A stretch of DNA of 51,010 nt from Actinomycetota bacterium. GTDB taxonomy: Bacteria; Actinomycetota; Humimicrobiia; Humimicrobiales; Humimicrobiaceae. Where the stretch lies: contig JAPLCN010000144.1 of NCBI GenBank assembly GCA_026392215.1, positions 1 through 51,010 of the forward strand. The letters run 5' to 3'. Positions 34,088 to 51,010 of this stretch are shown one piece after another. Every line of letters starts with the position of its first letter. Within the stretch, counting starts at the first letter, position 1. The position numbers and the translations under genes are program-made. The notes under the pieces are model-generated. The model was not told the origin of the DNA and searched no databases. It was given only the letters and a program-made list of their open reading frames with translations.

Positions 34088-34440
34088 GGGGGCGTTTTGG
34101 ATTCGACAGGGGTAGATTGAGCTTAGATGGCAAACCGAGTACCAGAGACTCGTAAAACGCTGGAACAAAAATAAACGCAAACAAAAGCGAATTAGCTTTA
34201 GCTGCCTAAACGCAGCTAACGTCCTTTAAGAGTTTCCTTCACTTTTAAAAGGGCGCCGTTAGAAGGATACCTTTTTAAGGAGCGGCCGTTTCCTTAAAAG
34301 AAGGGAAAATTAAAACAGCATAGCAATGAAAGATACTGTTCATGTGATTTTTCAAAGCGAAAATTAGACATGAACTATGTTTGTAGAAGTTTAAGTGCCA
34401 TTGTCTTTGGACGCGGGTTCGACTCCCGCCGCCTCCACCA
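34088..34440 (+). ncRNA. ssrA: tmRNA; tag reading frame ANKSELALAA* at 34177-34209
   Basis: 5' GGGGGCGTTTTGGATTCGAC; 3' GGTTCGACTCCCGCCGCCTCCACCA; acceptor stem with a G3.U wobble; tag ends in LAA. Confidence 0.97.
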
Positions 34441-46839: not shown

Positions 46840-47457
46840 ATGGAAAATGAAACTTCAATAATAATTGCTACAAAAAATAAAGGAAAAGTTAAGGAAATAT
46901 GGCATTTTTTAAAGGATTTAAACATAAATCTTTTGTCTCTTAATGATTTTGAAAATTTATCCGAAATCATTGAAGATGGCAAAAATTTTAAAGAAAATTC
47001 CATAAAAAAAGCAAAAATAATTGCCGAAACTTTTCAGAAATTAACTCTTGCTGATGATTCAGGGCTGGAAGTTGACTTTCTTAATGGCAATCCTGGTGTT
47101 TATTCATCAAGATACAGTGGTGAAAATGCAACAGATAAATCCAACAGAGACAAGCTCTTATCAGGACTTGCAGAGATAAAGGATTTAAATGAAAGAACGG
47201 CAAGGTTTGTATGCCACCTTGTTTTATGGGATCCGCAAAGGGGACTTTTATTCGAAACTGACGGGTTTTGTGAAGGGTGGATAGGTTTTGAAGAAACCGG
47301 AAGCGGCGGATTCGGATATGACTGCATCTTTATTCCAAAAGGATTTAATAAAACTATGGCGCAGCTTAGCAAGGATGAAAAGAATGAAATCAGCCACAGG
47401 GGCAAAGCTTTAAAAGATTTTACTGGTTTTATTAACAAAAATAAGTTTCTTTTTTAG
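46840..47457 (+). CDS. rdgB: dITP/XTP pyrophosphatase (HAM1 family)
   Basis: ATKNKGKVKE, ADDSGL, PGVYSSRY, GFGYD, KNEISHRGKA. Confidence 0.95.
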   Translation: MENETSIIIATKNKGKVKEIWHFLKDLNINLLSLNDFENLSEIIEDGKNFKENSIKKAKIIAETFQKLTLADDSGLEVDFLNGNPGVYSSRYSGENATDKSNRDKLLSGLAEIKDLNERTARFVCHLVLWDPQRGLLFETDGFCEGWIGFEETGSGGFGYDCIFIPKGFNKTMAQLSKDEKNEISHRGKALKDFTGFINKNKFLF

Positions 47458-47480
47458 CTTGTTTGAATTAAAATAATAAA

Positions 47481-47691
47481 TTAGCCGAAAGCCCCTTATT
47501 TCAATGATGGGGATGAAGGCTTTTTATAAAAACGTCTTGAAACGGGCGTTATACTATCGTTAATGGATTGAAATGGAATCTTTGATAGTGAAAATCTTAG
47601 AGAAACCAATTGGTCGTTATAAGTTTTGGCTTATATCGAAAGCTGGTCAGTATCTAAGAACCAGCCGACTTTAGTCGTGTAAGAATTTCAG
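47481..47691 (+). mobile_element. Degenerate miniature IS200/IS605-type element
   Basis: GCCGAAAGCCCCTTATTTCAATGATGGGGATGAAGGC resembles the left end of the 11727-12094 element; AAGAACCAGCCGACTTTAGTCGTGT...TTCA resembles a right end. Boundaries are approximate. Confidence 0.5.
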
Positions 47692-47707
47692 TTCTTGTCT
47701 GTAATAT

Positions 47708-47787
47708 CGGGGTGTAGCGCAGCCTTGGTTTAGCGCACCTGCTTTGGGAGCAGGGGGTCGGAGGTTCAAATCCTCTCACCCCGACCA
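47708..47787 (+). tRNA. tRNA-Pro(TGG)
   Basis: CGGGGTG/CACCCCG acceptor stem, CCTGC-TT-TGG-GA-GCAGG, GGTTCAAATCC, encoded CCA. Confidence 0.96.
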
Positions 47788-48014
47788 GTACTTTGAAAGT
47801 AAAAGTTAGCTTTGATTGGAGTTTAAATACGCCGGTGGCATATTTAAACAAAAGGATTTGAATGGACGGACTGAAGGCGGCAGCCGAAGGAGTCCGCGGC
47901 TCTGCAGCGAGCGATAGCGAGACGAAAGACCAAATCCTCTCACCCCGACCAGTACTTTGAAAGTAAAAGTTAGCTTTGGTTGGAGTTTAAATACGCCTGT
48001 GGCATATTTAAACA
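47767..48014 (+). repeat. tRNA-linked repeat at tRNA-Pro (164-bp period; tRNA 3' end repeated at 47931-47951)
   Basis: 47767-47850 recurs at 47931-48014 with 2 mismatches; the intervening GC-rich core is shared with the tRNA-Arg repeats. Confidence 0.9.
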
Positions 48015-48117
48015 CTAAGCCCTTTAGTTAATTCCCCTTTTTAAGTTTTTTATATTATTTGTATCAATAATAATTACCATAAAATATACCATAAAAAAAT
48101 ATTGATATTTAGCAATA

Positions 48118-48363
48118 GTGACAATACTGCCGATTACATCATTAAAACCTGGAAGAAAAATATATCCCAATGAAGTTTTAATTGAAAAAGATGAGAATAA
48201 AAATACCGGTCTTTCAATTGATTCCATTATTATGGCTCACCAGATTAGAACTGTTTTTAGAACTGTTTCAAAAAATAGACTAAAAAGAAATATCGGAAGT
48301 ATTGATGGTATGGAAATCATGGAAGAAGTCAATGAAGCTTTAAGGATTCATTTGAATTTATAA
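48118..48363 (+). pseudogene. 5'-truncated MazF/PemK-type toxin fragment
   Basis: VTILPITS..YPNEVLI..GL..DSIIMAHQIRT..K.RL...IG; in-frame stop at 48103 removes the N-terminus; 12-bp internal duplication; no antitoxin. Confidence 0.75.
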
Positions 48364-48599
48364 GAATTTCTGTTTTATGTAATTTATATGATTTTTTTAC
48401 CTCCCAAATTATTTTAATAGCAGGACTTGAAGTTTCCAGGTTTTTTGTATCCAAGCTATTAAAGAATTGATTGGCTATTGATTATTTTTAATTTTTATAT
48501 AAAATTTATTATGCAAATTAGATGGATAACTGTTAAAATAACTTGCTACTCTGTATGCAAGCTTTAAAGGGCTATTATTTGCAGGCATTTTGTATTCAA

Positions 48600-48676
48600 G
48601 CGGGAATAGCTCAGCTGGCTAGAGCGAAAGCCTTCCAAGCTTTAGGTCGCGGGTTCGAATCCCGTTTCCCGCTCCA
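48600..48676 (+). tRNA. tRNA-Gly(TCC)
   Basis: GCGGGAA/TTCCCGC, AAAGC-CT-TCC-AA-GCTTT, GGTTCGAATCC, CCA. Confidence 0.96.
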
Positions 48677-48756
48677 TTTTTTTAAAATGATTCATTTTTT
48701 ATGCTGATTATTCTGGTTTATTAAAAAAATTATTAAAATTTCAGGAGAAAGATAAA

Positions 48757-49953
48757 ATGAGTAGAAAAATAAGATTATTAATAATTTTTACTGTTATTTT
48801 ATGTTTGTCTTTTACTTTTATTCCTAACAATATATATGCAGCTACAAAAACCCAGGCGACTGATTTTGTAACAAGATTTTATACACATATTCTGGAAAGA
48901 AATCCTGATGCTGCAGGCCTTGATAGCCATGTAAAACAAATATTAAAAAAACAGATTACCGGGGCTCAACTTGCATATAATTTTGTGTTCAGTGCAGAGT
49001 TTTCTGCAAAAAATAAGAGTAATGAAGATTATTTAAAGATTCTTTTCAGGGCTTGCTTTAACAGGGAAGCTGATTCTGCCTCTTATGGCAACTGGCTGAA
49101 TTTATTAAACAAGGGCTATTCCCGCCAGTATGTGCTGGCAGGTTTTGTAAATGCGGATGAATTTAAAAACCTTTGCGGCAGCTATGGCGTAAAGGCAGGA
49201 AGCCTTGACGGGGGATCGATTCCTCAAATAACCGCAACTCAAATACCTATAATAGAATTGCACGGGATTGAAAATAGTCCAATGGGAAGATATGAAATTA
49301 GTGCCGGAGCTTTTGATTATATGTGCGGCACTTTAAAAAATATGGGATATGAAACAATCACACTCATTGATTTATATAATCATTTTGCAAAAGGCACAAA
49401 ACTGCCTGCTAAACCGGTTATTATTACAGCTGATGATGGTTATCAAAGCATGTATACTACTGCATTCCCAATCCTTAAAAAATATAAATACAAAATGACT
49501 GTTTTTTTAATTACAAGCTTTATTGGTGATAATGAAAAAACAAGAAGATTAAATGATTTTGACAGCGGTATGGAAAATATACCGCAAAGGGCGATGCTGA
49601 CATGGCCGGAAATCGGACAGATGAGTAAGTATGGCTTGGAATTTCAATCTCATTCATGGGGCCACACTATAATGAGCAATATTCCTATAGACAGGGCAAA
49701 ATTTGAACTTATTCAGTCAAAGCATGATATAGAACTGCATACTGGGAAGCCTGTTATATTTATTGCATGGCCTCACGGGGCAAGTTCAGATGAAGTAATT
49801 TCATTATTGCCACAAGTCGGTTATGTCGGGGCATTAAATGCATCTGGCGGCGTTCAAAGTCTGACGTCAATTGATTTAACCAGATTAAACAGAGTTGAGA
49901 TTGTTTCAGGGATTCCTCCCCAGGCTTATGCAGAAGTTTTAAATCTGCACTAA
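48757..49953 (+). CDS. Secreted polysaccharide deacetylase (CE4/NodB) with N-terminal DUF4214-like surface domain
   Basis: Signal peptide; FVTRFY..LER.PD..GL...F..SAEF repeats; ITADDG, FQSHSWGH, AWPHG. Confidence 0.85.
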   Translation: MSRKIRLLIIFTVILCLSFTFIPNNIYAATKTQATDFVTRFYTHILERNPDAAGLDSHVKQILKKQITGAQLAYNFVFSAEFSAKNKSNEDYLKILFRACFNREADSASYGNWLNLLNKGYSRQYVLAGFVNADEFKNLCGSYGVKAGSLDGGSIPQITATQIPIIELHGIENSPMGRYEISAGAFDYMCGTLKNMGYETITLIDLYNHFAKGTKLPAKPVIITADDGYQSMYTTAFPILKKYKYKMTVFLITSFIGDNEKTRRLNDFDSGMENIPQRAMLTWPEIGQMSKYGLEFQSHSWGHTIMSNIPIDRAKFELIQSKHDIELHTGKPVIFIAWPHGASSDEVISLLPQVGYVGALNASGGVQSLTSIDLTRLNRVEIVSGIPPQAYAEVLNLH

Positions 49954-50129
49954 ATTAAATGATATCGTTTTTTTAAATTCTTTTTCTAAATTCTTATTGA
50001 CTTGCATATTAATATTTTTTAAAGTATTATTTCGTTGCAATTAATTCAGAATAGTTGTCGGATGCTGTTAATTTTTTTATACACTGATTTTGTTATAATG
50101 AGTTAATTTGAATAGTATTAAATTAATAT

Positions 50130-50206
50130 GCGCTTGTAGCTCAGCTGGATAGAGCTACGGACTTCTAATCCGTAGGTCGGGGGTTCGAATCCCTCCAAGC
50201 GCACCA
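50130..50206 (+). tRNA. tRNA-Arg(TCT)
   Basis: GCGCTTG/CAAGCGC, ACGGA-CT-TCT-AA-TCCGT, GGTTCGAATCC, CCA. Confidence 0.96.
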
Positions 50207-50526
50207 TTGAACTTTGATAATTTATTTGCAACTTTAGATAAGAGTTTAAATCTGCCGGTGGCTGATTTAAACAAAGGGATTCGAATGGACGGAGCGAAGG
50301 CGACAGCCGAGTGAGTCCGCGGCTACGTAAGCGAGCGATAGCGAGACGAAAGACCGAATCCCTCCAAGCGCACCATGATACTTTGGTTTTAAGTTTTAAA
50401 ACTTTGAATGGACGGAGCGAAGGCGACAGCCGAGTGAGTCCGCGGCTCTGCAGCGAGCGATAGCGAGACGAAAGACCGAATCCCTCCAAGCGCACCAAGA
50501 TACTTTGGTTTTAAGTTTCAAAACTT
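50207..50526 (+). repeat. Two tRNA-linked repeat units at tRNA-Arg(TCT); tRNA 3' end repeated at 50355-50375 and 50477-50497
   Basis: CGAATCCCTCCAAGCGCACCA occurs at 50186, 50355 and 50477; each extra copy follows the shared core. Confidence 0.9.
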
Positions 50527-50565
50527 TTTGCTAAGCCGTTAGAATACTAATGGCAAAGGAATTTT

Positions 50566-50642
50566 GGTGAGAATAGCTCAGTTGGTAGAGCGCAGGTCTG
50601 TGGCACCTGATGTCGCGGGTTCGAGCCCCGTTTCTCACCCCA
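50566..50642 (+). tRNA. tRNA-His(GTG) with encoded G-1
   Basis: G-GTGAGAA/TTCTCAC-C-CCA, CAGGT-CT-GTG-GC-ACCTG. Confidence 0.96.
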
Positions 50643-50739
50643 TTTTTTTATTATTATCTTGTTTTTAATGATAAGGATTTAAAATATTAAATCTTATTTA
50701 ACAAATAAATGTTTACTCTTTGTAGTAGAAAAACAACTT

Positions 50740-50816
50740 GCGCCTGTAGCTCAGCTGGATAGAGCGACGGACTTCGAATCCGAAGGCCGGGGGTTCGAAT
50801 CCCTCCAGGCGTGCCA
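50740..50816 (+). tRNA. tRNA-Arg(TCG)
   Basis: GCGCCTG/CAGGCGT, ACGGA-CT-TCG-AA-TCCGA, GGTTCGAATCC, CCA. Confidence 0.92.
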
Positions 50817-51010
50817 AACACTTTAAAGTTTAAAGAATAACTTTTGATTAGAGTTTAAATATGCCTGTGGCTTATTTAAACAAAGGGATTCGAAAGGACG
50901 GAGTGAAGCGAAGCGTAATGAGTCCGCGTCTCTGCAGCGAACGATAGTGAGACGAAAGAACGAATCCCTCCAGGCGTGCCAAACACTTTAAAGTTTAAAG
51001 AATAACTTTT
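50796..51010 (+). repeat. tRNA-linked repeat at tRNA-Arg(TCG) (165-bp period; runs off the window edge)
   Basis: CGAATCCCTCCAGGCGTGCCAAACACTTTAAAGTTTAAAGAATAACTTTT at 50796 and 50961, separated by the hairpin, antisense arm and core. Confidence 0.9.

Follow-up and report, generated by a model that had tools for sequence, protein, structure and literature searches.

The 51,010-nt contig JAPLCN010000144.1 (assembly GCA_026392215.1; hereafter the window), from an actinobacterium of the family Humimicrobiaceae, carries behind three of its tRNA genes repeat units that contain an arm complementary to the T-arm of the tRNA immediately upstream. We think it probable that these units are E. coli-type tRNA-linked repeats (TLRs) of a new sequence family, that is, small structured noncoding RNA modules in the 3′ trailers of tRNA and transfer-messenger RNA (tmRNA) genes, read in the sense of the tRNA. 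Each unit is ~160 nt long (tandem periods are 159–165 nt) and consists, in order, of an AT-rich spacer S of ~35–40 nt, a hairpin H, the arm (10–11 nt), a 68-nt core, and a 21-nt tail that copies the tRNA from C56 to CCA. The spacer is locus-specific yet orthologous between species, and the hairpin, which in the window units reads GTTTAAAnnTGCC GGT GGCAnnTTTAAAC, is present after every unit-bearing tRNA. The core starts with (A/T)GGACGGA and ends with GAGACGAAAGA(C/A). Coordinates are collected in Table 1.

At all three window loci, the arm exactly mirrors the T-loop and the 3′ strand of the T-stem of the tRNA just upstream. A sequence-only reading of the window had reported that AGGATTTGAA (47853–47862) is the exact reverse complement of TTCAAATCCT (47765–47774) in tRNA-Pro(TGG) and that AGGGATTCGAA, found at 50275–50285 and again at 50884–50894, is the reverse complement of TTCGAATCCCT in tRNA-Arg(TCT) and tRNA-Arg(TCG); we confirmed both matches and their coordinates. 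It had also proposed that the arm tracks its host tRNA, with the reservation that only two T-arm variants were on hand. Collecting copies bears out the proposal and lifts the reservation: 68 first units with a CCA-ended tRNA directly upstream, drawn from the same genome and from 80 stretches of 24 related genomes, lie behind 24 kinds of tRNA or tmRNA gene and represent 21 distinct T-arm words. Within the window’s own genome, for instance, arms mirror TTCGATT at Arg(ACG), TTCGACT at Leu(TAG), CGAGT at Asn(GTT), TTCGAATCTC at Pro(CGG) and TTCAAAT at Tyr, while the Ser(GCT) unit has an arm with one mismatch to its tRNA.

When the eight variable arm bases were compared with tRNA positions 57–64 across this sample, all eight matched in 20 units, seven in 38, six in nine and four in one. 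The mean match was thus 7.12 of 8, as against 5.88 in 1000 shuffled pairings (highest shuffle 6.21); this lies far above chance, although it gives no formal probability because the sampled sequences share kinship. Arms that fail to match their host, the observation that the earlier reading had said would speak against it, do occur, in a minority of units and mostly by one base. Over positions 57–63, arm, tail and tRNA were identical in 52 of 70 units; only the arm deviated in nine and only the tail in three; all three differed in five; and in a single case, an Arg(TCG)-type unit behind a tRNA-Pro, arm and tail agreed with each other but not with the upstream tRNA. The tail equaled the last 21 tRNA bases in full in 54 of the 70 units, including those bases that have no partner inside the unit, and at 19–20 of 21 positions in nine more. 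The GAA of the arm is constant, and it is kept even at tRNA-Asn(GTT), where the T-loop begins TCC; position 55 is therefore not followed there.

For the RNA structure, we aligned 72 complete, distinct units and screened the columns for covariation by mutual information. Four elements covary: the stem of H; a helix that we call P1, formed by the arm and tail positions 56–63; P2, with an outer GGAC/GTCC and two inner pairs; and P3, a hairpin of the form C-GA-[stem-loop]-GA-G. A core-enclosing stem of the arm with the duplicated 3′ end had been suggested from the sequence alone, and as P1 it turns out to be the best-supported helix of the element, with 96.4% of its alignment cells paired and changes on both sides in five of its eight pairs. 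In the H stem (helices 1–2 of the pair counts), eight of 12 pairs have changes on both sides. The inner P2 pairs alternate between C-G (43 units) and G-U (24), and between U-A (38), C-G (17) and U-G (13), respectively, and a single further pair joins the G/U of GCG(G/U)CUC to the last core base, C/A (G-C in 48 and U-A in 22 of the 72). In one genus, the tandem G-A pairs of P3 are replaced by A-U pairs (CAAATCC/GGATTTG). Over the whole structure, 83.0% of cells were paired compared with 75.2% after shuffling, and the covariation score was 0.249 compared with 0.125 for shuffled alignments (none of 500 reached the observed value) and 0.035–0.090 with slid partners. Two rows of the pair counts were disregarded: helix 7, which consists of parallel pairs and is meaningless, and helix 6, the apical P2 stem, whose 33.7% pairing we attribute to misalignment by MAFFT of its variable length.

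The same pairs indicate which strand holds the structure. The core structure belongs to the tRNA-sense strand because its G-U cells would be C-A or A-C mismatches on the opposite strand; in hairpin H, G-U and A-C cells are about equal, hence it holds no strand information. Folding of the three window units predicts H, P1 and P2 on the plus strand with z-scores of −1.7 to −2.9, but folding energy decides nothing on this point because the minus strand folds about equally well. The strands that join the helices, GAA(A/U), GCG(G/U)CUCUGCAG and ACGAAAGA(C/A), are near-invariant family-wide, and their conservation suggests a tertiary fold or a binding site. Within the invariant junction lies the palindrome CTGCAG (47901–47907 in the window, and at the same spot in all units), which variant units (e.g. 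50324–50332) swap for another palindrome-containing word, CTACGTAAG or CTACGTGAG. As judged from these patterns of substitution, the element is a structured RNA in the tRNA trailer, on the tRNA-sense strand. It belongs to no ribozyme family that we could recognize: no ribozyme covariance model of Rfam 15 matched at E values up to 1 over 47000–51010 or up to 10 over 50207–50500, where the Rfam searches returned tRNAs and otherwise hits at chance level. A hammerhead-like junction was considered and ruled out by hand, the lengths and order of its strands being wrong.

Taken together, these data lead us to the following model. In the RNA, the arm pairs with the first eight bases of the tail copy to form P1, which closes a junction bearing P2, P3 and the near-invariant joining strands; the last 13 tail bases (the 3′ strand of the acceptor stem plus NCCA) remain single-stranded. 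As P1 stays paired and one of its strands is copied from the tRNA, the arm tracks that tRNA. Direct repeats (the tRNA’s own 3′ end, the unit tails and often S-H) would undergo exchange that holds the tail copy identical to the gene, and the same exchange would build and shrink the tandem arrays. The tail copy, together with the ACTTT-type word that follows its CCA, might offer the tRNA 3′-processing enzymes a second tRNA-like end, and each unit might thereby be cut from the precursor as a discrete, stable folded RNA. For the product, our best guess is a trailer RNA that has been processed and carries a tRNA-like 3′ end.

The closest known counterparts are the TLRs of E. coli. According to Stenum et al. 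2021 (PMC8144298), E. coli K-12 has 22 of them at ten loci, one to five per locus, and the final 18–19 bp of each are identical to the 3′ end of the stable-RNA gene (tRNA or rRNA) upstream. Egan & Landy described them first, in 1978, and Rudd catalogued them in 1999 (both as cited in PMC8144298); they include the 178-bp repeats of tyrT-tyrV, RtT RNA (rttR, Rfam RF00391) and the 5S-linked RrA/B/F. RtT and RrB are transcribed with their operons and processed to discrete RNAs, and an idea resembling the tail processing proposed above has been raised for the 5S-linked RrB and RNase E (PMC8144298). The same account gives TLRs “no known function” and notes that an early link between RtT and the stringent response has been withdrawn. 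An E. coli mobilome-sequencing preprint mentions raised coverage at the tyrT region.

We searched for arms at the tyrT locus and in all 18 matches to RF00391 in E. coli K-12. The Tyr TLR has the arm GGGGAAGGAT and the Ser(GGA) TLR the arm GGGGGGAT, each an exact complement of its own tail. The Arg(ACG) arm, GGGAGGAT, is likewise an exact complement, one base off in two copies; the Lys arm, GTGAAGGAT, is a complement with one mismatch; and the Pro(CGG) arm, GAGGAT, is complementary over six bases. The Lys, Pro and off-by-one Arg arms were read by eye, and an automated search for the longest match gave other words for several of these units. In several E. coli units a hairpin stands just before the arm, and in all that we inspected a C-GA-[stem-loop]-GA-G hairpin (e.g. 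CGAGCGAAGCGAG) stands directly before the tail; some actinobacterial units have this very 13-mer in the corresponding position. The sequence-only reading knew of no named element with such target-matched covariation, a view that these E. coli arms overturn: because E. coli TLRs carry them, the target-matched arm is part of an already named design. We found no paper remarking on the TLR arm in the literature that we searched.

As far as can be read from the sequences, the likeness of design is clear. Both kinds of unit immediately follow a tRNA gene (or, in E. coli, an rRNA gene) and share its strand, with one to several copies in tandem; in both, the end of each unit copies the 3′ end of the upstream gene; and the order of parts is the same as in K-12, namely a hairpin, the tRNA-matched arm, core hairpins, the C-GA-[stem]-GA-G hairpin and the tail. 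They differ in register and in sequence. The tail copy is 21 nt from C56 in the actinobacterial units but 18–19 nt from A58–T60 in E. coli; the arm covers T-loop plus T-stem (positions 54–63) in the former and T-stem plus part of the acceptor strand (59–68) in the latter; the core sequences are different; and the hosts are a low-GC lineage of Actinomycetota on the one hand and Enterobacteria on the other. The RF00391 model (gathering score 45 bits), which finds 18 copies in E. coli K-12, gave no match at E values up to 1 over 47000–51010 or up to 10 over the 294-nt stretch 50207–50500, and since it does not detect them we regard the actinobacterial units as a new variant.

The family is widespread in the relatives of the host. 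In the host genome itself (2.15 Mb in 207 contigs; 46 tRNA/tmRNA genes were called, including a few duplicates at contig ends), a BLAST search with the core located two copies behind tRNA-Tyr(GTA) and others behind tRNA-Pro(CGG), Arg(ACG) and Ser(GCT), as well as truncated ones behind Leu(TAG), Asn(GTT) and Pro(GGG). Among 40 relatives searched at the DNA level, 19 of the 24 that belong to the same family carried the unit, as opposed to none of the 16 from outside. A profile that we made from nine copies of the host genome and ran on that genome plus the 80 fetched stretches yielded 115 hits, 108 of them distinct. For 71 of these, a tRNA or tmRNA gene lies within 135 nt upstream, always on the same strand, and 24 kinds of gene are represented; 14 more are further units of arrays, and 23 have no tRNA in the stretch (21 of them at contig or stretch starts). 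The distance from the tRNA end to the core has a median of 79 nt (range 72–109, n=61). Of two hits without a tRNA, one stands behind a decayed tRNA 3′ fragment, and the second, a partial unit, ends in a tmRNA-like tail and follows a toxin–antitoxin gene pair. A degenerate core on contig C137, 523 nt from tRNA-Arg(CCT), was inspected for an arm matched to a site outside tRNA genes and proved to be just a decayed copy between two genes.

With a covariance model of our own (R1), which gave roughly 350 matches, the family was detected in 58 of 79 genomes of the host’s Humimicrobiaceae-like family and in none of seven from two other families of the class. Units were present in every genome searched of genera g1, g5, g14, g17, g2, g7 and g10 and in one of six genomes of g4, and they were absent from g12 (0/5), g6 (0/3), g11 (0/2), g9 (0/1) and g13 (0/1). 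The operon Arg-TCT, His, Arg-TCG, Lys, Leu is compact in the unit-free genera, with spacers of ~48 nt and neither S nor H; since S and H are missing there too, S, H, arm, core and tail come and go together. A scan of genome contigs with an 18-base core word returned at least 119 stretches, and many among those listed are metagenome-assembled genomes of Actinomycetota, Humimicrobiaceae, Humimicrobium or Hydromicrobium; the other listed matches (Streptomyces, Shewanella, Prevotella etc.) we take to be probable chance occurrences in 596 Gb. In viral contigs, the same word matched once, in a coding region without a tRNA, and was treated as chance.

The arrays appear to be dynamic. A locus carries one to at least three tandem copies, and the number varies between species at the same tRNA: at Leu(TAG), for example, one species has three full units and the host genome a single decayed one. 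At tRNA-Asp, two species have the order tRNA, S-H, arm, core, tail, S-H, T-run, with both S-H copies identical within a species, and the host genome has just tRNA, S-H, GGGATTC and a T-run. In 62 terminal units, the sequence past the last tail repeats the tRNA flank over a length that ranges from 0 to >70 nt, so that arrays end after the tail, after 5–39 nt of S, after S-H or after S-H-arm. Such arbitrary ends are typical of ordinary tandem repeats and argue for unequal exchange between direct repeats rather than for a fixed crossover site. Core subtypes, defined by P2 and P3 variants, recur at several tRNAs of one genome, and the same tRNA carries other subtypes in other species; we conclude that cores are exchanged between loci while arm and tail stay local.

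Hairpins of the H type also occur outside complete units. One stands alone, followed by a T-run, behind a protein gene (contig C160, 1667–1694), and in related species the last H of some arrays is likewise followed by a T-run. H may thus have originated as an intrinsic terminator or may also serve as one.

Evidence on transcription comes from public sequencing runs, 24 of which were listed as matching the stretch; two of these are metatranscriptomes that contain small shares of it. In one of the two, a contig corresponds exactly to 50052–50300, that is, to 78 nt of leader, tRNA-Arg(TCT), S, H, the arm and the start of the core, and a second contig matches 50301–50375 exactly, with the break falling at 50300/50301. 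A third contig from the same run lies on 50850–51006 with six differences. The protein gene at 48798–49977 has no coverage in either RNA run and is covered in both DNA runs. The contig joints in these runs connect tRNA genes of other organisms. Between the tRNAs and the units, no sigma-70-like promoter or intrinsic terminator was predicted, the counts not exceeding those for shuffled sequence. The pattern of RNA coverage is a weak hint that the units are co-transcribed with the tRNA.

Several observations weigh against the interpretation of the units as processed, TLR-like trailer RNAs. The RNA contigs reveal neither strand nor ends, the exact matches come from one run only, and the Pro(TGG) unit has no coverage in the two metatranscriptomes. 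P1 pairing is not always maintained: one or more mismatches in the arm or tail occur in 18 of 70 units. A tRNA end is imitated only in part, since P1 reaches no further than position 63 and the 13 bases beyond it are unpaired; the unit therefore has no imitation of an acceptor stem, and its CCA might fail to halt exonucleases. Homology to the E. coli TLRs finds no significant support: R1 scores them at 7–12 bits (E 0.07–1.3), and over 21 kb of E. coli sequence it gave 28 matches at E values up to 10, of which, among the best 11, five fell on TLRs in the right orientation and about three on tRNAs or terminators. Finally, the unit-free genera and the seven sister-family genomes without units indicate that units may be gained and then spread to some 24 tRNA genes, and selection on P1 alone does not account for such a spread.

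The main alternative is that the unit is a small mobile element that inserts at the tRNA T-loop. The arm would guide it, either in RNA form or within a folded DNA single strand, and the tail would be a duplication of the target. The arm and tail, once folded, rebuild the exact duplex of the tRNA gene at positions 56–63; 24 kinds of tRNA or tmRNA gene serve as hosts; S, H, arm and core behave as one insertion when compared with the same operon in unit-free genera, which have neither S nor H; and the distribution is uneven (58 of 79 genomes in one family, 0 of 7 in its sister families, 1 of 6 in g4). What is missing is a matching enzyme. We looked for Phage_integrase, RVT_1 (reverse transcriptase), Y1_Tnp and IS110 genes. 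The host genome has six Phage_integrase matches, none beside a unit and the nearest ~14 kb off (on contig C61), and RVT_1 had no match in 12 of the 17 unit-bearing genomes searched. Y1_Tnp was found in all three genomes of the unit-free genus g6 but in neither the single genome of unit-bearing g15 nor more than two of 12 of unit-bearing g3, and IS110 (DEDD_Tnp_IS110) was absent from the unit-bearing g14 (0/3), g10 (0/2) and g7 (0/2). As judged by these profile matches, the occurrence of Y1 and IS110 genes is unrelated to that of the units: they are found in unit-free genera and missing from many unit-bearing genomes. Units also sit at orthologous tRNAs across genera, the right-hand ends of the arrays vary, the G-U pairs fit an RNA read from one strand, and the single match in viral contigs is no real copy. 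We therefore consider a mobile element of this kind unlikely, though worth keeping in view.

A related proposal of the sequence-only reading, that the folded single strand serves as a recombination substrate in the manner of integron attC sites or CTX attP, fares no better. There are real similarities: those sites too have imperfect inverted repeats around a variable or structured middle, rebuild a duplex site from folded arms and can occur in tandem arrays. However, the units have no integrase or Xer-type partner that we could find, and no cassette genes; their middle is RNA-like, with G-U pairs that fit only the tRNA-sense strand (24 and 13 of 72 units at two adjacent pairs); no recombinase adjoins them; and their array ends are arbitrary instead of marking a fixed crossover.

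A bolder idea goes beyond any one lineage. TLR-type modules could form one ancient, cross-phylum class of self-propagating tRNA-trailer RNAs, in which the tandem-G-A hairpin and the arm-closed tail would be homologous to those of Enterobacteria, and the arm–tail pair would recognize a T-loop and have the unit copied there by an enzyme, the tail being the target duplication; in a still bolder variant, the junction would cut itself at the border of core and tail and so free the 21-nt tRNA tail. To this idea we lend less credence than to the mobile element above.

Lower again we would place the possibility that the arm acts on the genuine tRNA. Here the arm would pair with T54–C63 of the upstream tRNA in the precursor, over 10–11 bp (two more than with the tail), and gate its folding or maturation, with the tail as a decoy. 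The sequence-only reading had offered a version of this, an RNA guide or switch directed at the precursor T-arm, which survives as an improbable rival. In its favor, the constant GAA complements T54-T55-C56, and T54-T55 precedes C56 only in the real tRNA; the truncated, tail-less units at Leu(TAG), Asn(GTT) and Pro(GGG) keep a matched arm; and arm and tRNA share one RNA contig of precursor size. However, the GAA is invariant and does not follow position 55 at Asn(GTT), the one host loop that starts TCC; a folded T-arm would be costly to open; the truncated copies may simply be decaying; and pairing with the tail copy explains the same covariation with no extra assumption.

Integrases that use tRNA genes leave att sites in which the tRNA is duplicated from the T-loop to its 3′ end, and the units could in principle be scars of tyrosine-integrase elements (att repeats or cis-mobilizable remnants) at this T-loop sublocation. 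Like the att repeats of islands and prophages, the tail duplication extends from the T-loop as far as the 3′ end, and tmRNA genes serve as hosts too; the same genome has plain tRNA-Gln tail copies starting GGTTCGA; and a toxin–antitoxin gene island has one partial unit at its far end. Unlike such repeats, however, the units have an inverted arm, and the ~140 nt between their repeats hold a conserved, covarying structure and no gene, the copy starts always at C56 instead of at variable points, no integrase is adjacent, and the tandem periods are 159–165 nt. This reading is largely refuted and, to our minds, very improbable. The least credible of all is a tRNA-primed retroelement, in which the tail, read on the opposite strand, would be a primer-binding site complementary to the tRNA 3′ end: the minus strand does begin TGG, with complementarity to the last 21 tRNA bases, and the copy often stops exactly at CCA, but reverse transcriptase genes are sporadic (none, as noted, in 12 of the 17 unit-bearing genomes searched), the conserved structure is that of the plus strand, and the duplication extends in many loci past CCA into S, which a mature-tRNA template would not be expected to give.

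The Gln-type tails deserve a description of their own. In the host genome, a common stretch of ~110 nt ending in a copy of the tRNA-Gln(TTG) 3′ end from GGTTCGA stands behind tRNA-Leu(TAA) and tRNA-Leu(CAA) (contigs C23, 7925–8065, and C58), and Gln-like tails also occur in isolation elsewhere, at C169:2318 and, downstream of tRNA-Glu(CTC), on C77. These look like ordinary att scars or another repeat family rather than the unit studied here.

Table 1. Features of the three unit-bearing tRNA loci of the window
Feature	Position	Strand	Basis or details
tRNA-Pro(TGG), host of Pro unit 1	47708–47787	+	ARAGORN; Rfam tRNA 62.9 bits
Spacer S, Pro unit 1; ACTTTGAAA-type word directly after CCA	47788–47820	+	sequence
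Hairpin H, Pro unit 1 (GTTTAAATACGCC GGT GGCATATTTAAAC)	47821–47849	+	sequence; stem covariation
Arm, Pro unit 1; AGGATTTG predicted to pair with tail positions 56–63, then constant AA	47853–47862	+	sequence, pair counts
Conserved core, Pro unit 1	47863–47930	+	alignment of 72 units, mutual information, pair counts, folding
P2, Pro unit 1; GGAC...GTCC, inner pairs 47871-47889 and 47872-47888	47864–47895	+	
Invariant junction GCGGCTCTGCAG between P2 and P3, Pro unit 1		+	
P3, Pro unit 1; C-GA-GC GATA GC-GA-G, then junction ACGAAAGAC	47908–47921	+	
Single covarying pair, Pro unit 1 core	47899-47930	+	
Tail, Pro unit 1; exact 21-nt copy of tRNA-Pro(TGG), C56 to CCA	47931–47951	+	
Partial second Pro unit; S and H only, array stops there	47952–48014	+	
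tRNA-Arg(TCT), host of two units	50130–50206	+	ARAGORN, Rfam
Arg(TCT) unit 1	50207–50374	+	S 50207–50243, H 50244–50272, arm 50275–50285, core 50286–50353, tail 50354–50374
Arg(TCT) unit 2, deletion form	50375–50497	+	short spacer, core 50409–50476, exact tail 50477–50497
tRNA-Arg(TCG), host of array running past window end	50740–50816	+	ARAGORN, Rfam
Arg(TCG) unit	50817–51010	+	S 50817–50852, H 50853–50881, arm 50884–50894, core 50895–50950, tail 50951–50971, next S begins

Three of the entries in Table 1 call for comment. The partial second Pro unit shares 39 of its first 40 bases with the S behind tRNA-Pro(TGG). Arg(TCT) unit 2 has no hairpin H, and its arm is reduced to a TTTGAA stump at 50403–50408. 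The Arg(TCG) array continues on another contig of the same genome (C42) with one more copy and a final S-H.

Among the neighboring features, an 85-codon open frame without a start (48106–48363, plus strand), just after the Pro unit, is a truncated gene for a PemK/MazF-type toxin (Pfam PF02452, E 3.8e-13, profile positions 37–108 of 109, i.e. the last two thirds); DNA and RNA contigs of other samples show a 12-base deletion in it at 48245. The window also holds a tmRNA gene (34088–34440, plus strand; tag peptide ANKSELALAA) with no unit, whereas the tmRNA genes of two related species carry units. Elsewhere in the genome (contig C164, 16009–16700), a second tRNA-Pro(GGG) gene has no unit but a GC-rich hairpin region behind it, and next come a helix-turn-helix gene and apparent restriction-modification genes; judged by eye, this region is probably an island at a tRNA.

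What the family adds to the E. coli TLRs is hundreds of diverged copies behind two dozen tRNA genes, something that E. coli alone could not give; because the copies are diverged and stand behind many different tRNAs, the helices can be read from covariation. They show that the tRNA tail copy has a structural role in a folded RNA, being paired to an arm matched to the tRNA, that this RNA lies on the tRNA strand, and that its order of parts recurs in E. coli. The question of TLR function thereby becomes testable, and a family absent from Rfam gains a model that annotators can use. If it were true that units spread by pairing with the T-loop, they would represent a new way of targeting tRNA genes.

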